64,000 bases of DNA from contig DASZSL010000045.1 of the NCBI GenBank assembly GCA_035548715.1, positions 1-64,000 on the forward strand. Direction: 5' to 3'. The position numbers and the translations under genes were made by a program. Source of the DNA: Dongiaceae bacterium (GTDB lineage: Bacteria; Pseudomonadota; Alphaproteobacteria; Dongiales; Dongiaceae). Positions within the stretch are counted from its first letter, which is position 1, and every line of letters starts with the position of its first letter. A model generated the notes under the pieces. It was given only the letters and a program-made list of their open reading frames with translations, was not told the DNA's origin and ran no database searches. Below, one piece after another: positions 8 through 47,424 of this stretch.

Positions 8-775
8 CTACTCCGCGCTGAGATCGCCCGACTTGTACTTGTCGACGATCCAGTCGCGCATCGCCAGGGCCTGCTTCAGCCCGGTCGTTGGGAACGTGAT
101 CGACTGCGGCTGGCCCTTGGCGCCGAAGACCGCGCTCAGCGTCACGCTCTTGCCGGCAAGGAGCTCGTTGCCGAGGGCGTCGCCGGCCTCGCAATGGTCG
201 GGGGCGGCGAGGCTGTGCGGGGCGCCGCCGTCGACCGTCACGGTCGCGGCGTCGGTCGTGTTGTCGGTGACCGCGCAGACGCCGTGATCGGCGACGCGGA
301 TGCCGCCGGTCGTCATCGTGTTGGGGGTCACCGGCTGGGTGTGCAGCACGTCGCAGAAGGTCTTCGCCGCGCCGCCATCGGTCGCGGCCTCGGCCTTGCA
401 GAGCACGCTCCAGCTCTCGGCCACCTGGATGAAACGCCATTCCAGGCCCTCGTTCTGCGAGACCCGCAGATAGCCGTGATCCGACGAGCCGTAGCGCCAG
501 GCGACGCCGTCCTTCTCGCCATGCACCGCCCAGCCGTCCTTGCCGGTGACCAGCGTGCCGCTCTCCAGGGTGCCGCCGTCCGGCATCACCGCCTTGTCGA
601 GGGCGATCGGCTTGGCCGCCTCGGTCGGGTTCTCCATCATCGCCGGCGCGGGCTCGGGCGCCATCGCGGCGGGCGCCGCCGGGTCCTCTTTCTTCTGGGC
701 GCAGGCCGCAAGCAGGGCCGCCGCAGCGAGCACGGTCATGGTGGTGATCAGCCTGGGCATCGTCCCCCCTATCAT
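8..775 (-). CDS. hypothetical lipoprotein; signal peptide with lipobox LAAC; likely start at MPRLITTM near 760
   Basis: ORF with N-terminal hydrophobic segment plus Cys lipobox; no recognised family. Confidence 0.5.
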   Translation of the reverse strand: MIGGTMPRLITTMTVLAAAALLAACAQKKEDPAAPAAMAPEPAPAMMENPTEAAKPIALDKAVMPDGGTLESGTLVTGKDGWAVHGEKDGVAWRYGSSDHGYLRVSQNEGLEWRFIQVAESWSVLCKAEAATDGGAAKTFCDVLHTQPVTPNTMTTGGIRVADHGVCAVTDNTTDAATVTVDGGAPHSLAAPDHCEAGDALGNELLAGKSVTLSAVFGAKGQPQSITFPTTGLKQALAMRDWIVDKYKSGDLSAE

Positions 776-852: not shown

Positions 853-1230
853 TCAGCGCCGGCGCTGGATCACCGGCTCCTTGCCGCCGGAAAGGAGGCC
901 GGTCCGCACCACCGCCGGGTTCCGGGTCTTGGCAAGGACCGCGCTGGAGGCACCGGCTTTCGGCATGACCTTCTGCAGGGAGGCCGCGCTCCGGGCCGGG
1001 CGCGGCTTCGCCTTGGCCGCGGTGCCGAGGGCGCCCGTGGTGGCCGGGACCGAGCTGCGTGCCGCCTGCTGCTCCCGGAGGATCCTCTTGGCGACGGCAT
1101 CGATCCGCGCCATCCCGCCATCGCCGCGATCCGCCTTGCCCAGGCTGCGCAGCATCCGCGCGAGACCGCGCAGCAGCGCAAAGCCGATGAAGATCGCAAC
1201 CGCAATCGCACTCAGCTCGTTCTGGCTCAT
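853..1230 (-). CDS. small hypothetical membrane protein (single N-terminal TM helix)
   Basis: 125-aa ORF with hydrophobic N-terminus; weak support, overlapped by other-frame ORFs. Confidence 0.3.
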   Translation of the reverse strand: MSQNELSAIAVAIFIGFALLRGLARMLRSLGKADRGDGGMARIDAVAKRILREQQAARSSVPATTGALGTAAKAKPRPARSAASLQKVMPKAGASSAVLAKTRNPAVVRTGLLSGGKEPVIQRRR

Positions 1231-12440: not shown

Positions 12441-13016
12441 ATGATCAGCTTCGCCGAATTTGAGATCGCCGTGCGCGGCCTGCTGCACCTGGTGCGCTTC
12501 GACGCCGCCTTTGCCGGCTTCTTCGACCTCTCGCGGGAGGGCGCGCGGCGATCGTTCCGCCTCGCCTTCCCGCTGCTGCCGATCAGCCTGCTGGCGTTCA
12601 ATCTCAACATCAAATGGCCCGACGGGAGCGACATGGTGCGCATCGGGGCCGCGGAACTGATCGGCTATACGCTGGGCTGGACCCTGCTGCCGCTGCTGCT
12701 GCTCTGGTGCGGGCAGGCATTCCGGCTCGGACCGCGGGTCTTCGGCGCCGTTGCCGTCTATAACTGGCTCAGCGTGCTTTCCGTGGCGATCCAGCTGCCG
12801 ATCTCGGTCGCCGTTCGCCTGGGCTTCGACCAGACGATCGGCGGCTTGCTGAGCGAAGGCGGCGTGATCTTCATCACCGCCTGCGAGTTCTTCGCCTTCA
12901 AGCGCCTGCTCGGCGTCGCCTTCGAGGCCGCCCTGGCGCTCGCCATCACCGACTTCTTCATCGGCTGGCTGCTGATCCGCGAGCTGATCGTGCCGCTCGC
13001 CCTCGGTCAGTTCTGA
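12441..13016 (+). CDS. hypothetical integral membrane protein
   Basis: Multiple hydrophobic helices; no recognised family. Confidence 0.45.
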   Translation: MISFAEFEIAVRGLLHLVRFDAAFAGFFDLSREGARRSFRLAFPLLPISLLAFNLNIKWPDGSDMVRIGAAELIGYTLGWTLLPLLLLWCGQAFRLGPRVFGAVAVYNWLSVLSVAIQLPISVAVRLGFDQTIGGLLSEGGVIFITACEFFAFKRLLGVAFEAALALAITDFFIGWLLIRELIVPLALGQF

Positions 13017-13022
13017 ACGCGT

Positions 13023-14177
13023 TCAGGCCGCGGCGTCGAGCTCCGCTTCGCGCATCCGCAGGACCCGGAGCCGGCTCTCGACGTCCTCCTTGTTGAGATA
13101 GGCGCCGGCGAGGCGCCGATAGCCCTGATAGGCGTCGCGCGCGTGCAGCAGGCGCCAGTTGTCGAACAGCACCAGCGATCCCGGCTCCAGGCGGCGGCGG
13201 TATTGCAGCCGCCGGTCGCCGGCCAGCCGCGCGAAGGCGCCGTAGGCCCGGTAGAACGCCTTCAGCTCGGCCTCGGGCAGGAAAATCGGCGCGCGGTCGA
13301 GCGGGTTGTAGCTGACCTGGACCAGGCGGCCGGCGGAATCGAGGCGGAACACCGGCCGCCGCGCCATCAGGTGGATGCCCTTCTCGTGGTCGATGTACTG
13401 GCCGGTGACCTCGACCTCGGTCAGCACGCGGTAGAGGTCGGGCATCTCGGCCCGCATGATCGCCGCGATCTCGAAGCCGTCGATCAGCACGCTGTCGCCG
13501 CCGGTGCAGTCGAGCCCGAGGCAGTGGAACATCTGGTAGCCCGGCGCGTCGAAGCTGTAGGTGCCGTCGGTATGCGGACCGATCGCCATCGACGTATAGG
13601 CGGTGTCCTTATGCTCCATGTTGGCGGTGAAGTCGTAGTAGCCGCCGAAGATCGTCTCGCGGATATAGGCCGCACGCCGCGCCACCGCCTGGGTCGCCTC
13701 CGGCGTCGCCGGCACGCCCTCGACGAAGGCAAAGCCCAAGCGCGCGATCTGCTCCAGCCATTGCCGCAGCGCGCGATCGCCCGCGGCGCCCGGCGCCATC
13801 AGGGCCGCATACTGGACCTGCGGCACCGCGCCGCCGAGCCGTGCCTCGTCCCAGAGCTCGCGCTCTTCCCGGGCCGCGCCGCCGAGCTGCGTCGCGGCGC
13901 GCAGCCAGGCGTCCTCGAAGCGGCTGAGATGGGTGCCGCGCGGCTCGGCCCACTCGATCTCCAGCGCCGGGTCGTTGGCGGCGAAGCTGATGCGCCGCGC
14001 CGCGATGTCGGCGCCGACGAAACTGTCCGAGAGGCGCTGGCGGGTCTCGGGATGGAGGCAGGCGGGACACGGGCAGTGGTCGCGCAGCCAGAGCAGCGGC
14101 ACTGCGGCGCGATGCCCGTCGGCCCAGGCGAGGCTCACGGTCTCGCCTTCGATCTTCACGTCGCTCAGCATGGCCAT
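13023..14177 (-). CDS. gamma-butyrobetaine hydroxylase-like Fe(II)/2-oxoglutarate dioxygenase (TauD/TfdA family with N-terminal GBBH-like DUF971 domain)
   Basis: N-terminal Cys-containing GBBH-like domain (WLRDHCPCPAC), HTDGTY facial-triad region, C-terminal R..W..LHAR. Confidence 0.75.
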   Translation of the reverse strand: MAMLSDVKIEGETVSLAWADGHRAAVPLLWLRDHCPCPACLHPETRQRLSDSFVGADIAARRISFAANDPALEIEWAEPRGTHLSRFEDAWLRAATQLGGAAREERELWDEARLGGAVPQVQYAALMAPGAAGDRALRQWLEQIARLGFAFVEGVPATPEATQAVARRAAYIRETIFGGYYDFTANMEHKDTAYTSMAIGPHTDGTYSFDAPGYQMFHCLGLDCTGGDSVLIDGFEIAAIMRAEMPDLYRVLTEVEVTGQYIDHEKGIHLMARRPVFRLDSAGRLVQVSYNPLDRAPIFLPEAELKAFYRAYGAFARLAGDRRLQYRRRLEPGSLVLFDNWRLLHARDAYQGYRRLAGAYLNKEDVESRLRVLRMREAELDAAA

Positions 14178-14266
14178 CCTCTCCTCCGTCAGAGGCGGCA
14201 GTAATAATACGTTCGTATAATAACGCGCAAGCGGTTATTTTACGGGTGTAAAATTAGGAGGCCGCC

Positions 14267-14926
14267 ATTCCCCGCGCCGCCCGATCCGCCCCGCCCGGGC
14301 CGAGCCCACGGGCAAGCCAGGGGCCGAAATTCACCCGCGACCTGCCGGAGGCGCGGCGCCGGCAGCTGATCGAGGCGACGGCGCGCTGCCTCGCCAAGCA
14401 CGGCCTTGCCGGCACGTCGGTGCGCCAGGTCGCGGCCGAGGCCGGCGTCTCGGCCGGGCTGGTGCGGCACCATTTCGAGGGCATGCACCGGCTGGTGGCC
14501 GAGACCTATCGCAGCACCGGCAAGGAGATCGCCGCAGTCGTGGCCGCGGCGCTGGAAGCGGCGGGCGGCGAGCCGGAGGCGCGGCTGCGCGCCTTCATCG
14601 ACGCCAACCTGCGGCCGCCGCTGCTCGACCCCGAGCGCCTCGCGGTCTGGCTCGCCTTCTGGAGCCTCGCGCGCAGCGACGCCGAGATCCGGCGCATTCA
14701 CGCGCGGGTCTATCGCGAATACCGGCGCATGATCGAGGAGATGCTGACCGCGCTCGCGGCGGCGCTGAAGCGGCCCATCGACACGCGCCGCGCGGCGCTG
14801 CACCTGGTCGCACTGCTCGACGGGCTGTGGCTCGAGCATTGCCTCGACCCGGAGACCTTCGACGCGGCCGAGGCCGCCGCGATCGCCCATCGCTGGGTCG
14901 ATGGACTGAGGGCCGGCGCGGCCTAG
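14267..14926 (+). CDS. TetR/AcrR family transcriptional regulator; start codon uncertain (no in-frame ATG/GTG/TTG after the upstream stop)
   Basis: HTH LAKHGLAGTSVRQVAAEAGVSAGLVRHHF; in-frame reading from 14258 gives EAAIPRAARSAPPGPSPRASQGPKFTRDL... before the HTH. Confidence 0.65.
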   Translation: MPRAARSAPPGPSPRASQGPKFTRDLPEARRRQLIEATARCLAKHGLAGTSVRQVAAEAGVSAGLVRHHFEGMHRLVAETYRSTGKEIAAVVAAALEAAGGEPEARLRAFIDANLRPPLLDPERLAVWLAFWSLARSDAEIRRIHARVYREYRRMIEEMLTALAAALKRPIDTRRAALHLVALLDGLWLEHCLDPETFDAAEAAAIAHRWVDGLRAGAA

Positions 14927-16347
14927 CGCGCGAAGCGCCGCAGCAGCACCGCGATCACGACGACGACCCCGCATTCCATCAGCACGGCGCGGCCGAATCC
15001 CGCGGTGGCCGCGGCGACCGGCAGCACGCCGCCGGTCTCGTGCAGGCCGAACAGGATGATGCCGACGATGGCGACGCCGAAGGCGACGCCCAGCTGCTGC
15101 ATGGTGGCCAGCACGCCCGACGCCATCCCGGCGTGGGTCTCCGGCAGCATGCCGAGGATCGCGTTCAGCAGCGGCGTCAGGATCGCACCCTGCACCGCGC
15201 CGATCACGAGCAGTACCGGCATCAGGGCGACGATCGAGGGTCGGGCCGGCATCAGGAAGAGGAGAACGGCCAGCACCCCGAACGCCGCGAGATAGATCAT
15301 GCCGCCCCAATTCAGCACCTTGCGGCCGTAGCGCTGGGTCAGCCGCGGCACCAGCAGCGACACTAAGGCGAAGGCGGCCGAGATCGGCGTCAGCACGAAG
15401 GCGGCCTCCAAAGGCGTCCGCCCGGTGCCGAACTGCAGGAACACGGCGAAGGAGAAGTAATAGGGCGCCATGCTGGCATAGAACAGGAAGCAGAGCAGCG
15501 CGCCGGTCACGAAATACGGCACCCGGAACAGCCGGATCGAGAGCAGCGGCGCATGCCCGGTCTGCTCGAAGCGCGTCTCGTGCGTCACGAACAGCGCCAG
15601 GATCGGCAGGGCGACCACGCCCAGGATCGCGGCGGGCCCGATGCCGAGCGCGCGCAGGCCGATGAAGGCCGCCAGCAGAAAGCCGAGGCCCAGCGCCGAG
15701 AGCGCTACGCCGCGCAGATCGAGCCGGATCGCGGTCGACACCCGGGACTCGTCGAGCCAGCGGAGTCCGAAGGAAACCGCCGCGATGCCGATCGGCAGGT
15801 TGACCAGGAAGACCAGCCGCCAGCCGAGGCCCCAGAGATCGCTGCCGATCAGGAAACCGCCGACCAGCTGGCCCGAGGCCGCGGCGATGCCGATGACCAG
15901 ACCCATGATGCCGAAGGCGCGCCGGCGCTCGTCGCCGTTGAACCCGACCCGGATCGAGGCCAGCACCTGGGGCAGCACCAGCGAGGCGGTCATGCCCTGC
16001 ACCACCCGCGCCACCACCAGGGTCGCGGCGCTCGGCGCCACGCCGCACAGCACCGAGGCGACGGTGAACGCGGCCATGCCGATGAGGAACGTGCGCTTGC
16101 GCCCGTGGATGTCGCCGAGCCGGCCGCCGGTCACCAGCAGCACGCCGTATCCCAGGCTGTAGCCGGCGATCATCAGCTCCAGCGCCGCGCCACCGGCATG
16201 GAGGCCGCGGGCGATGCTGGGGATGGCGATCTGCACGATCATGGCGTCCAGCACGGTCACGAAACTGCCGCAGAGCAGCACGGCCAGGCCGAGCCAATGC
16301 CGGCGGCCGGCGGCGACGGGCGTGGAGGCGATCTCGCTGACGAGCAT
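14923..16347 (-). CDS. MFS transporter, DHA2 (14-TMS EmrB/QacA-like) drug:H+ antiporter family
   Basis: 14 predicted TM helices; MFS motif GGRLGDIHGRKRTF. Confidence 0.85.
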   Translation of the reverse strand: MLVSEIASTPVAAGRRHWLGLAVLLCGSFVTVLDAMIVQIAIPSIARGLHAGGAALELMIAGYSLGYGVLLVTGGRLGDIHGRKRTFLIGMAAFTVASVLCGVAPSAATLVVARVVQGMTASLVLPQVLASIRVGFNGDERRRAFGIMGLVIGIAAASGQLVGGFLIGSDLWGLGWRLVFLVNLPIGIAAVSFGLRWLDESRVSTAIRLDLRGVALSALGLGFLLAAFIGLRALGIGPAAILGVVALPILALFVTHETRFEQTGHAPLLSIRLFRVPYFVTGALLCFLFYASMAPYYFSFAVFLQFGTGRTPLEAAFVLTPISAAFALVSLLVPRLTQRYGRKVLNWGGMIYLAAFGVLAVLLFLMPARPSIVALMPVLLVIGAVQGAILTPLLNAILGMLPETHAGMASGVLATMQQLGVAFGVAIVGIILFGLHETGGVLPVAAATAGFGRAVLMECGVVVVIAVLLRRFAR

Positions 16348-40187: not shown

Positions 40188-40775
40188 ATGCGCCGCACCC
40201 GTTTCATCGCACCATTGCTGCTCGGCCTGGCTCTGGGCCCGGGGCTCGCGGCCTGCAACACGCCGCCGGAGCGGCAGACCTTTCCGGACATCACCTTCCA
40301 GCACCTGGCGCCGTTCCGGCTGGACGTCGCGCATGTCGAGATCGTGCAGGGCTATCGCCCCGATCCGGCCAACGACATCGCCGACCAGTTCCCCGAAGCA
40401 CCGGCCAAGGTCGCGGCGCAATGGGCGCAGGACCGGCTGCAGGCGGTGGGCTCCCAGGGCCAGGCCGTCTACACCGTCGTGCTCGCCAAATCGACCGACA
40501 CGCCGCTCAAGCGCTCGCAGGGCATGGCGGCGGTGACGCACAAGGACCAGTCGGACCGCTACGACCTCGCGATCAGCGTCAATCTCGAAGTGCAGAGCGC
40601 GGGCAAGTCCGGCGCGCTGACCGCCCAGGCCGCGCGCAGCCAGACCGTCCGCGAGGACATGACCCTCAACCAGCGCGAGGCGGTGCTGTTCAAGCTGCTC
40701 GACGACACGATGAAGGACCTGAACAAGCAGCTCGAGGGGCTGATCCCGCAATATGCGGGCGGGTTCTTGAGGTGA
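40188..40775 (+). CDS. hypothetical lipoprotein (signal peptide, lipobox LAAC)
   Basis: Signal peptide plus lipobox; no recognised family. Confidence 0.5.
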   Translation: MRRTRFIAPLLLGLALGPGLAACNTPPERQTFPDITFQHLAPFRLDVAHVEIVQGYRPDPANDIADQFPEAPAKVAAQWAQDRLQAVGSQGQAVYTVVLAKSTDTPLKRSQGMAAVTHKDQSDRYDLAISVNLEVQSAGKSGALTAQAARSQTVREDMTLNQREAVLFKLLDDTMKDLNKQLEGLIPQYAGGFLR

Positions 40776-44549: not shown

Positions 44550-44623
44550 GCGGGTGTAGCTCAATGGTAGAGCAGAAGCTTCCCAAGCTTACGACGGGGG
44601 TTCGATTCCCCTCACCCGCTCCA
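44550..44623 (+). tRNA. tRNA-Gly (anticodon CCC), CCA encoded, U73 discriminator
   Basis: Manual cloverleaf: 7-bp acceptor GCGGGTG/CACCCGC, D-arm GCTC/GAGC, anticodon loop TTCCCAA, T-loop TTCGATT. Confidence 0.85.
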
Positions 44624-44772
44624 ATTTTCCACGATCGGTGCGACGAACCCCCTCGCTGAGGCGAGGCGCCGCGGGCGCGGCGCGGGCGGTTCGATTCCCC
44701 TCACCCGCTCCAATTTTCCACGATCGGTGCGACGAACCCCCTCGCTGAGGCGAGGCGCCGCGGGCGCGGCGC
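44599..44772 (+). repeat. perfect tandem duplication of an 89-bp unit (copy 1 44599-44687 includes the last 25 nt of tRNA-Gly; copy 2 44688-44772)
   Basis: Identical strings GGTTCGATTCCCCTCACCCGCTCCAATTTTCCACGATCGGTGCGACGAACCCCCTCGCTGAGGCGAGGCGCCGCGGGCGCGGCGC at both positions. Confidence 0.9.
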
Positions 44773-45197
44773 TAGGTCTCTCCCGCCCCGCCGGATTCCG
44801 ACGCGAGGAGTCCCTTCGCGCGGCATGCTTCCGCCGCCTGGCGGATGTATTCCCCGGTCTCCGGCGCATCGTACCGGGCGGAGATCTCCTGGCTGAGCGC
44901 CAGCAGCTCGTAATAGGTCGCGCGGTAGGGCCGCAGCTTCTCATAGGTCTGCAGCAGCACGTCGTTCGGAATCGCCGTCAGCTCGGCGGCGCGGCGGAAG
45001 TTGCGGGCGAGCTGCGGATAGCCTTCGCTTTCGGCACGCTCCGCCTGGGCAAGCAGCGTCTCCCGGCTGATGGTCAAGTCGTCGGGCGCCAGCCCGCCGG
45101 CACGCAGCCGTCCGAGGGTGAGGTCGTCGGCGGCAGCGCGCGAGACCTTGCGGCGCGGATCCGGCTCGTCGAGTGGCGGCCGGCGGTCATTCTTCAT
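44772..45197 (-). CDS. B12-dependent diol/glycerol dehydratase small (gamma) subunit
   Basis: Size and position directly downstream of the large-subunit gene with an 11-bp overlap; similarity to PduE/DhaB3 family. Confidence 0.6.
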   Translation of the reverse strand: MKNDRRPPLDEPDPRRKVSRAAADDLTLGRLRAGGLAPDDLTISRETLLAQAERAESEGYPQLARNFRRAAELTAIPNDVLLQTYEKLRPYRATYYELLALSQEISARYDAPETGEYIRQAAEACRAKGLLASESGGAGET

Positions 45198-47424
45198 AGA
45201 CGGCTTCCATGTTCGAGGCCGCCCGCTCGCTCTCCACACGGGCGACCTCTCGCTTGTGCATCAGGGAGGCGTGCACGATCAGGCGCAGCCGCGCGGTGGT
45301 GTCCACCTTGACAGGCACCGGCGCCGGCGGGCGCCGCAGGGCGTGGCAGGCCGCGTTCGATCCGATCTGCCGGTAGGCCTCGCGCGACAGCAGCGGCGCC
45401 TGGGCGAAGAGCTCCAGGTTGTTGAGCGGCGCCAAGCCCTTGCGCTGGATCACCGCGGTGCCTTTCGACTGCAGGCCGATGGCGATGCCGGAGCCGCTGA
45501 GCCGCGCGCCCTGGTGGCCGATCATGCCGCAATCCGCCGTGTCGAAGACCTTGACGATCCGCGCCTTGATTCCGTGCTGCTCGATCCCGGCGACGATCTC
45601 GCGCAGCACCTCGCCGTGCGAGAGTCCGCTCAAGGTCGTGTCGAGCGCCGAGGCGAAGGCCGGACCCACGGCGACCACGACCTCGGGTGCGGTGCCGGCC
45701 GCGGCGGGTCCCGTATCGCGCAACGTCACCCCGGCATTGCCGCTGGAGATCGGCACCATCTCCGCGGCCGAACGGGCCTGCGGGATCGCCGCAATCCGGC
45801 GCCATTCCTCCCCCTCGAGCCGGAAGCCGGTGCCCGGCCCGAGATAGTCGTTGCCGTCGGTGAAGGCGCTTTCAGTCGTGCCGTCCGACGCCAGGATCGC
45901 CGCCGGCTGCAGGTACTCGCCGGCGACGCGTACGCGCTGCATGCCGAGGATGTTCTCCGCGACGTCCTGGAATCCCGCCTCGTCGAGCACCCGAACCACG
46001 TCGAGCGCCGTCAGCGGTCCGTCCAGCAGGTCGTCCGCCGCGGCGAGGTCCTGGACAAGGTCGCGCTCGGGCATATCGTCGGACGAATAAGCGGAGGTTG
46101 CAGCGTCGATCTCCGTGTCGCCGATCGCCGGAAAACCGAGGCCGCGGAAGATCGCCTGCATCGCCAGAGCAGCACGGCGCCGGACGGCGACGACCTGCGG
46201 CTCGGTCACCGGCTCGATGCCGGCATCGACGCGCATGTCGCGCTGGATGACCATCCAGTCGTCGAGATCGTCGGCGTCGAAGTTGCCGCCGCCGAACATA
46301 TTGTCCCGGCGCGGCATCGAGCTGTAGCCCGAGGTGATGAAGTCGGTCCCAGGGAGGAACTGGAGCATCAGCTTCGCCGCCTTGCGCATGTCCGAGTGCG
46401 AGGAAAGCGCGTCGTTTCCCGAGGCGACCTCCAGCCCAAGCGATGCCGCTATCAGGTTCTCGGCCAGGACCGCGCGCACACCGCCCGGCAGGGCCGACGG
46501 CAGCGCGATGCAGGAGATCGAGCCGTTCTGCACGCCTTGCGCGCCGGCCCCTTTCGCGAGCAGCAGGCACCGCGCTTCCAGATAGAGCATCGACCGCCCC
46601 GCCTCATAGCCCATCAGGGTCTCAGCCCCAGTGCCCGACGTGAAGCGGATCTTGATCCCGCGCGAGGCGTAGGCGGAGGCCAGGAAGCCCTTGGACCACG
46701 GCGTATCGTCGCCGTCTGCCATAGCCTCGTCGGTGCCGTAGACCGAGAGCGTCTCGGCATAGCTGGTGAGACCCTTGAGGCCGAGCCTGAGGTTGAGCGC
46801 CTCCTCCACCGCGCATTGGGTCAGCACGCCGCCGCGCGGCGTCTGCGCGCCGACCAGGATCGCCAGCGCGTTGATCGGCGCCATCCGGGCGACGCGGCAG
46901 GTGGTCTCGAGCTCGTCGAAGCCTCGGAGCGCGGCCTCGGCGGCGTCCGCCGCCATCAATGCGGGGTTCTCGCGCCAGTTGGTGACGTGGGCCTGGTTGC
47001 CGGGGCGACGGCGGGCGCGCATCTTCTGCAGCGCCATCATCATCTCGACGACGTTCAAGTGCGAGACGACGGAACAGAGCTTGGCCGGCGTGCAGCCCGA
47101 AAGCAGGTCGACCAGCCGTTTGCGCGGCATGTGGATGTCCACCAGCATCCGCGCCAGCTCCAGCGAGGGCATCGCCATGGCCTCTGCCGCGGTCGCGGTG
47201 TTGACCGCATACCGGGCGATGTAGCGGTCGATGACGTCGAAATCGGCTTCCGGGCAGCCGTCGATCTCGACCACGCGGCCGTCCTCCAGCCGGATGCTCG
47301 GCACCGGGTCGTTCGGGCTGTCCATGACGACCAATCCGAGCCCGGGATCCTCCTGCACGAAGGTGTCGCGGTTGATCGCCTGCCGCTCGCGCTTCTCGAA
47401 CCGTTTGGACCGTAGCATCCGCAA
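45187..47424 (-). CDS. B12-dependent diol/glycerol dehydratase, fused large (alpha) plus medium (beta) subunits
   Basis: N-terminus MRSKRFE...NRD.F, internal blocks VSHLNVVEMMMALQKMRARR, TQCAVEEA, GDDTPWSKGFLAS, SCIALPS, FITSGYS match PduC/DhaB1; the C-terminal about 190 aa is beta-subunit-like. Confidence 0.85.
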   Translation of the reverse strand: MRMLRSKRFEKRERQAINRDTFVQEDPGLGLVVMDSPNDPVPSIRLEDGRVVEIDGCPEADFDVIDRYIARYAVNTATAAEAMAMPSLELARMLVDIHMPRKRLVDLLSGCTPAKLCSVVSHLNVVEMMMALQKMRARRRPGNQAHVTNWRENPALMAADAAEAALRGFDELETTCRVARMAPINALAILVGAQTPRGGVLTQCAVEEALNLRLGLKGLTSYAETLSVYGTDEAMADGDDTPWSKGFLASAYASRGIKIRFTSGTGAETLMGYEAGRSMLYLEARCLLLAKGAGAQGVQNGSISCIALPSALPGGVRAVLAENLIAASLGLEVASGNDALSSHSDMRKAAKLMLQFLPGTDFITSGYSSMPRRDNMFGGGNFDADDLDDWMVIQRDMRVDAGIEPVTEPQVVAVRRRAALAMQAIFRGLGFPAIGDTEIDAATSAYSSDDMPERDLVQDLAAADDLLDGPLTALDVVRVLDEAGFQDVAENILGMQRVRVAGEYLQPAAILASDGTTESAFTDGNDYLGPGTGFRLEGEEWRRIAAIPQARSAAEMVPISSGNAGVTLRDTGPAAAGTAPEVVVAVGPAFASALDTTLSGLSHGEVLREIVAGIEQHGIKARIVKVFDTADCGMIGHQGARLSGSGIAIGLQSKGTAVIQRKGLAPLNNLELFAQAPLLSREAYRQIGSNAACHALRRPPAPVPVKVDTTARLRLIVHASLMHKREVARVESERAASNMEAVYEE

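Follow-up and report, generated by a model that had tools for sequence, protein, structure and literature searches.

We analysed a 64,000-nucleotide stretch of the Dongiaceae bacterium assembly GCA_035548715.1 (contig DASZSL010000045.1, positions 1 to 64,000; hereafter the window) which carries, on its minus strand, a gene fusing the large (alpha) and medium (beta) subunits of an adenosylcobalamin (AdoCbl)-dependent diol/glycerol dehydratase, together with a separate gene for the small (gamma) subunit (Table 1). Suicide inactivation limits the classic B12-dependent diol and glycerol dehydratases, which rely on an ATP-driven reactivase. An original prediction, made from the sequence of the window alone, had proposed that this enzyme is encoded without reactivase or microcompartment genes nearby and in an unusual pathway context.

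A fused dehydratase gene and its small-subunit partner

The predicted joining of large-subunit blocks to a C-terminal medium-subunit-like segment in a 745-residue open reading frame (ORF) was confirmed. The ORF (45187..47424) has 745 residues when counted from a TTG at 47424, and an ATG at 47418 with GGAGG 7 nt upstream is the likely start. The gene was taken as 45187-47418 because this ATG, preceded by a Shine-Dalgarno (SD) sequence, yields a 743-residue protein known from databases, where an entry annotated from a Dongiaceae (Alphaproteobacteria) metagenome-assembled genome (MAG) is 100% identical to it. Pfam domains Dehydratase_LU (PF02286, residues 5-554, E 4e-259, 861 bits, cutoff 25) and Dehydratase_MU (PF02288, residues 588-699, E 7e-26, 90.7 bits, cutoff 27) lie in this single ORF, the alpha part running into the beta part without a stop codon, which sets the gene apart from the three separate genes of pdu and dha loci. 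The NCBIfam large-subunit model NF011979 scored 852.5 bits against a cutoff of 788, and the medium-subunit model PRK15042 gave 219 bits, under its cutoff of 248, matching profile positions 38-217 and leaving out the first 37.

Comparison with solved structures aligned the alpha chain 1dio_A with the first ~550 residues of the fused protein (E 7e-215) and residues 32-211 of the beta chain 1dio_B with residues 547-728 (E 9e-47). The C-terminal extension is on this evidence beta-subunit-like; an extension unlike beta had been named beforehand as able to overturn the prediction. An engineered Klebsiella alpha-beta fusion (9via, 754 aa) aligned with the window protein end to end (E 3e-257), and a tether between the alpha C-terminus and the beta N-terminus therefore fits the fold. 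The alignment of the beta domain begins at PduD residue ~48, and the domain keeps 39 of the 64 positions that are invariant among unfused beta chains. What the window protein lacks relative to PduD is a stretch of ~45 N-terminal residues, which includes the microcompartment-targeting peptide. Of 108 homologues having both a GPGTG and a GPAF motif, 107 space the two by 57-59 residues.

The second gene had been described as a 141-residue small subunit overlapping the first by 11 bp, and this too was borne out: the protein matches Pfam Dehydratase_SU (PF02287, E 7e-31, 107.5 bits, cutoff 25), and the 11 bp shared by the two genes can be read in the sequence as tctATGAAGAATGAcc. None of the NCBIfam small-subunit models reaches its cutoff for this protein, the best giving 110 against 183. 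Through the overlap the two genes would form a translationally coupled module. The GC content of the window is ~68%, and GC at third codon positions (GC3) is 0.89 in the dehydratase genes, like that of neighbouring genes.

Table 1. Features of the dehydratase locus, with positions in the window
Feature	Position	Strand	Evidence
Fused alpha-beta (large + medium) subunit gene, AdoCbl-dependent diol/glycerol dehydratase, 743 aa	45187..47418	-	Pfam, NCBIfam and PDB matches; SD
Alpha (large-subunit) domain, aa 1-555	45754..47418	-	~57-58% identity to Salmonella PduC and Citrobacter DhaB1; ungapped to ~aa 510
Active-site motif D336-A337-L338-S339 (classic enzymes: D-Q-T-F)	46402..46413	-	Translation
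Natural linker, ~aa 556-582, in place of PduD N-terminal ~45 residues	45673..45753	-	Alignments
Beta (medium-subunit) domain, ~aa 583-743, with cobalamin-side motifs QSKGT and NLELF	45190..45672	-	1dio_B match
Gamma (small) subunit gene, 141 aa	44772..45197	-	Pfam Dehydratase_SU, gene call, sequence
Short-chain dehydrogenase/reductase (SDR)-family oxidoreductase, 250 aa	47538..48290	-	Pfam adh_short; no NCBIfam model at cutoff
TcuA-like FAD-dependent oxidoreductase (flavoprotein), 483 aa	48336..49787	-	NF006130 (TcuA) 347.7 bits, below cutoff 369
tRNA-Gly(CCC), 148 nt downstream of the small-subunit gene, bounding the block	44550..44623	+	Rfam, ARAGORN

Accessory genes, active site and the fused clade

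To look for accessory genes we used as tblastn queries PduA, C, D, E, G, H, J, M, N, O and Q of the Salmonella pdu locus and DhaB1-3, DhaF, DhaG, the adenosyltransferase and DhaT of the Citrobacter dha locus. These recovered the three dehydratase subunits in the window. For PduG, PduH, PduA, PduJ, PduM, PduN, PduO, DhaF, DhaG and the adenosyltransferase there was no match better than E 0.5 across the 64 kb. A second assembly of the same organism extends the sequence by ~8.5 kb past the right end, where the same accessory queries gave nothing at E <= 1e-4 and where transport and oxidoreductase genes are found. In about 72 kb of this genome, therefore, the reactivase and microcompartment genes are absent as predicted, and on the readable right side no reactivase lies just outside the window. 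Pfam, run on the bulk of the other genes predicted in the window, showed only ordinary chromosomal genes of housekeeping and transport (argD, ornithine carbamoyltransferase, Hsp33, M20 peptidase, ApaG, an OmpA-like protein, TamA/TamB, def, fmt, leuC/D/B, a LysR regulator, sugar ABC transporters and an aldehyde dehydrogenase). With its fusion, its separate overlapping gamma gene and its lack of accessory genes, the locus is therefore not a classic pdu or dha locus.

Among database proteins, all of the 120 closest clusters (62-100% identity) are fused, carry both Pfam domains and measure ~740-800 aa, a few shorter entries being probably truncated. A scan of species-representative genomes gave 80 loci with 10-kb flanks, 63 fused (alpha and beta in one ORF) and 17 unfused, the latter made up of 16 full-length Firmicutes loci and one truncated 1.5-kb contig bearing the fused-type signature. 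The fused loci come from Alphaproteobacteria, Acidobacteriota, Acidimicrobiia, Chloroflexota, Arenicellales and Thermodesulfobacteriota, a cultured isolate, Dongia sedimenti R-7, among them, and a separate small-subunit gene after the fused ORF is common to the 120 clusters and the 63 genome loci. In a neighbour-joining tree of the alpha region a single branch parts fused from unfused sequences, with identities of 0.58-1.00 within the fused clade and 0.53-0.64 between the clades. The 94 plasmid matches in PLSDB included none of the fused type (best identity 56.7%).

Because the alignment is ungapped in this region, residue numbers of the window protein are those of Klebsiella glycerol dehydratase; residue roles are as given in PMC7674605. 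Alignment to the solved dehydratases, proposed as a check on the prediction, found the metal, substrate and catalytic residues kept, as are the two beta-side motifs. Ten such positions (Q142, H144, E171, E222, T223, Q297, S302, D336, S363 and F375) are invariant in all sequences of a 64-member fused set, which we compared with 18 full-length unfused sequences. The two sets differ completely at the three residues following the catalytic Asp336 (Table 2), and Ala at position 337, which corresponds to Gln336 of Klebsiella oxytoca diol dehydratase, is also present in 120 of the 120 closest protein clusters. Further positions that switch between the clades beside active-site residues are 296, 305, 310, 370, 376 and 378.

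Table 2. Active-site residues and linked accessory genes in fused and unfused dehydratases
Property	Fused	Unfused
Position 337	Ala in 64/64	Gln in 18/18 full-length
Position 338	Met, Leu or Val in 64/64	Thr in 18/18 full-length
Position 339	Ala or Ser in 64/64	Phe in 18/18 full-length
PduG/DhaF reactivase within 10 kb	0/63	16/17 (16/16 full-length)
PduA/PduJ shell proteins within 10 kb	0/63	8/17
PduO-type adenosyltransferase within 10 kb	0/63	15/17

The clade thus pairs subunit fusion with the lack of a linked reactivase, and the rule can be put as fused, Ala337 and no linked reactivase. Since the fused loci form one branch and have no linked reactivase, the window gene is a typical clade member. 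The layout, which had been thought unusual, is instead the rule for a large environmental and mostly uncultured clade; the literature already records the fusion as well as the absence of the reactivase (PMC7674605, citing Liu et al. 2010; PMC4777399).

Gene neighbourhood of the dehydratase pair

The SDR and flavoprotein genes lie upstream of the dehydratase on the same strand, separated from it by 119 nt (dehydratase-SDR) and from each other by 45 nt, and no terminator-like site was found between the three genes; their co-transcription is possible. The four genes form a block between leuB and the tRNA-Gly gene. No TcuB-like partner for the flavoprotein was seen among the window genes scanned.

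From this arrangement one could suppose that the dehydratase, the SDR and the flavoprotein make up a dedicated pathway acting on an unusual substrate. The close spacing on one strand agrees with this idea, as do SDRs in 12 of the 63 fused loci and an altered pocket which would permit a non-classical substrate. We nevertheless hold it unlikely, and rejected it because the association with fused dehydratases is not conserved. The SDR matches are at the generic family level (~30-35% identity), and a homologue of the flavoprotein occurs in one fused locus of the 63 (32% identity). Dehydratases 85-87% identical to that of the window, in Dongia and relatives, sit in unrelated surroundings: one of 87% identity is located after nitrate/nitrite assimilation genes, two Dongia genomes have the downstream genes of that same locus, and a third Dongia genome differs again. 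The neighbours are different in each of Alsobacter, Caldilineaceae and another alphaproteobacterium as well. The closest homologues of the flavoprotein (82% and 64%) have no dehydratase nearby and are found beside ABC transporters or in other clusters; next to that of 82%, in a Roseiarcus MAG, a ribose-type ABC transporter is encoded divergently. Moreover a strong SD precedes the dehydratase gene itself, and leuB and the tRNA gene lie on either side of the block. Of the context proposed in the original prediction, the departure from classic pdu or dha stands, while the link to the SDR and flavoprotein does not. We also rejected the upstream leuCDB genes as pathway paralogues: LeuC, LeuD and LeuB all exceed their NCBIfam cutoffs and were therefore treated as leucine biosynthesis genes.

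As a pair, the dehydratase genes behave like a self-sufficient module that moves freely between locations. That close relatives hold the pair elsewhere suggests its relocation or insertion beside the tRNA gene. In the other assembly of this organism the dehydratase contig stops ~0.8 kb past the small-subunit gene, near the tRNA gene, and a 2.8-kb contig (CAZXWL010000028.1) ends exactly at window position 1.

Several lineages have neighbours of their own. In a subclade of Rhodobacteraceae and related alphaproteobacteria (nine loci) a conserved gene set adjoins the fused dehydratase in divergent orientation, each gene being present in 7-9 loci, ~2.5-9.9 kb upstream of the fused gene and on the opposite strand. 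Identified by eye, this set comprises a solute-binding protein, two MalFG-like permeases, ABC ATPases, a GMC-type oxidoreductase, a GntR regulator and a glyoxalase-like protein, and it may hint at the uptake and oxidation of a small polyol or diol. Seven Acidobacteriota loci ('Versatilivorator', Terriglobia) have conserved neighbours unrelated to the alphaproteobacterial ones, by eye an LmbE-like deacetylase, a pyridoxal phosphate enzyme of Cys/Met metabolism, a D-serine-dehydratase-like protein and a peroxiredoxin. CobS and CobT, subunits of the aerobic cobaltochelatase, directly follow the small-subunit gene in one alphaproteobacterial contig (CAWKVG010000002.1; locus L006 of the scan, 12839-15687) and are the only B12-related neighbours among the Pfam-annotated contexts inspected. 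In Alsobacter (locus L003, 6800-9750) the genes divergent from the dehydratase are those for an SDR, a 3-hydroxyacyl-CoA-dehydrogenase-family protein and a BKACE protein, a set which we take to resemble carnitine-type catabolism. The window itself has at 13023-16347 a GBBH-like/TauD dioxygenase, a BetI-type TetR regulator and an MFS transporter, whose likeness to the Alsobacter set is probably coincidental. Four further ORFs of the window, at 8-775 (-), 853-1230 (-), 12441-13016 (+) and 40188-40775 (+), have high GC3 and coding-like composition and no Pfam match.

Interpretation and comparison with known systems

The gene almost certainly encodes a functional B12-dependent diol dehydratase. 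We consider it probable that this is a cytoplasmic AdoCbl-dependent vicinal-diol dehydratase of the naturally fused type which works without a microcompartment or a PduGH/DhaFG reactivase and has a pocket that would make the reactivase dispensable. What follows on quaternary structure, activity, substrate and why a reactivase could be dispensed with is our inference. By homology, the alpha-beta fusion polypeptide and the separate gamma subunit would assemble like the (alpha-beta-gamma)2 enzymes, with AdoCbl bound between the alpha and beta domains. Q142, E171, E222, Q297 and S363 would hold the two hydroxyls of the substrate on the active-site metal, and H144 and D336 would serve in converting a 1,2-diol to the corresponding aldehyde through radical migration of the hydroxyl group. 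The substrate could be 1,2-propanediol, ethylene glycol, glycerol or a 1,2-diol of longer chain. The change from Gln-Thr-Phe to Ala-(Met/Leu)-(Ser/Ala) after the catalytic Asp is expected to drop a polar contact near C3 of the substrate and to open space there; such a pocket may lower mechanism-based inactivation and relax the limits on substrate size, and life without a reactivase could then be tolerable.

The effect of the first of these changes can be judged from engineered diol dehydratase, for which a table in PMC7674605 (Yamanishi et al. 2012) lists a kinact with glycerol of 0.081 per min for Q336A and 1.15 per min for the wild type (~14-fold lower). As Q336A slows inactivation by glycerol, it is reasonable to suppose that the natural pocket may cut suicide inactivation and admit bulkier C3 substituents. 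The clade-wide Ala337 signature is the most useful lead both on the substrate and on how these enzymes cope without a reactivase.

Some observations weigh against this interpretation. In the same table Q336A alone has a lower kcat and a higher Km for 1,2-propanediol than the wild type, and the natural pocket may accordingly suit another substrate. Rfam found no cobalamin riboswitch in the window, a tRNA being its sole match, and all-against-all clustering of 887 predicted genes from the 63 fused loci and the window gave no neighbour conserved throughout the clade, the commonest clusters after the two dehydratase genes being ABC-transporter proteins (15 loci) and SDRs (10 loci). Our literature search found no biochemical study of any natural fused enzyme.

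A second alternative is a Pdu/Dha-type dehydratase of the ordinary kind, with its reactivase and other accessory genes located elsewhere in a genome of which the ~72 kb examined is only a part. This we regard as quite improbable, since a reactivase is linked to every full-length unfused locus and to none of the fused ones, complete genomes are on record that have the fused gene and lack dhaF and dhaG entirely (PMC4777399), and the enzyme falls in a clade apart, marked by an active-site signature of its own. That the genes are a decaying or non-functional remnant which has lost its partners, as the missing accessory genes and a neighbourhood that varies even among close relatives might imply, is very hard to credit when both ORFs are intact with a codon GC3 like that of the rest of the genome, no catalytic residue varies over at least six phylum- or class-level lineages, clade members are 58-100% identical and keep the length of the linker, and the Mycobacterium smegmatis paralogues are expressed (PMC4881515).

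The probable reading thus remains a reactivase-free fused dehydratase. A bolder version, which we put forward only tentatively and think rather doubtful, is that the whole fused clade represents a naturally reactivase-independent, oxygen-exposed B12 radical enzyme in which the tethered beta domain and the altered pocket resist inactivation, or exchange damaged cofactor unaided, and whose substrates are vicinal diols larger than 1,2-propanediol or glycerol, or substituted differently from these. Engineers have tried both subunit fusion and Q336A-type mutations against inactivation, and a widespread natural clade combines the two; if reactivase independence is indeed intrinsic, the clade would be a ready-made template for robust industrial dehydratases. 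The window adds one member to this clade and reveals neither a new kind of system nor a new pathway.

The closest known systems are those of Mesorhizobium loti (mll6722/mll6721), M. opportunistum, Hyphomicrobium sp. and M. smegmatis, which like the window have the large and medium subunits in one gene and an adjoining small-subunit gene; the likeness is drawn from published descriptions, and the host (Dongiaceae) and the neighbouring genes differ. Liu et al. 2010 is cited in the review PMC7674605 for natural alpha-gamma type enzymes in M. loti and M. smegmatis, and the fusion of dhaB1 and dhaB2 in Mesorhizobium, Mycobacterium and Hyphomicrobium was described by Martins-Pinheiro et al. 2016 (PMC4777399). 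The latter authors mark dhaF and dhaG as missing in the complete genomes of M. loti, M. opportunistum and Hyphomicrobium, hosts which are aerobes, repeat a remark by Liu that the active site of the fused enzyme is slightly different, and speculate that reactivation is nonexistent in these bacteria or occurs by another route. M. smegmatis has three fused-type paralogues (MSMEG_0497, 1547 and 6321), one of them expressed under all conditions tested (PMC4881515), and use of ethylene glycol via a B12 diol dehydratase has been reported for an aerobic Mycobacterium (PMC12214560).

Klebsiella oxytoca PddABC and Salmonella PduCDE (PDB 1DIO, 1EEX) share ~57% identity with the window proteins in alpha, ~50% in the beta core and ~40% in gamma, as well as the metal, substrate and catalytic residues. 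They differ in being three separate polypeptides, in having Gln336-Thr-Phe where the window protein has Ala-Leu-Ser, and in their pdu operon, which also encodes PduGH, shell proteins and PduO, all lacking in the window. In the Klebsiella/Citrobacter DhaB123 and DhaFG system (PDB 1IWP), engineered alpha-beta fusions (PDB 9VIA and relatives) reproduce the fused layout of the window protein and are reported to be active, one being inactivated more slowly in lysate (PMC7674605); unlike the window protein, these retain the Gln-Thr-Phe pocket and stem from reactivase-containing dha regulons. The engineered Q336A and S301A/Q336A diol dehydratases, for which the title of Yamanishi et al. 2012 reports activity on longer-chain 1,2-diols, carry the same Gln-to-Ala change as the window protein, whereas the natural fused enzymes keep Ser302 (Ser301 in diol dehydratase numbering) and have in addition changed the next two residues and about ten other clade-specific positions.

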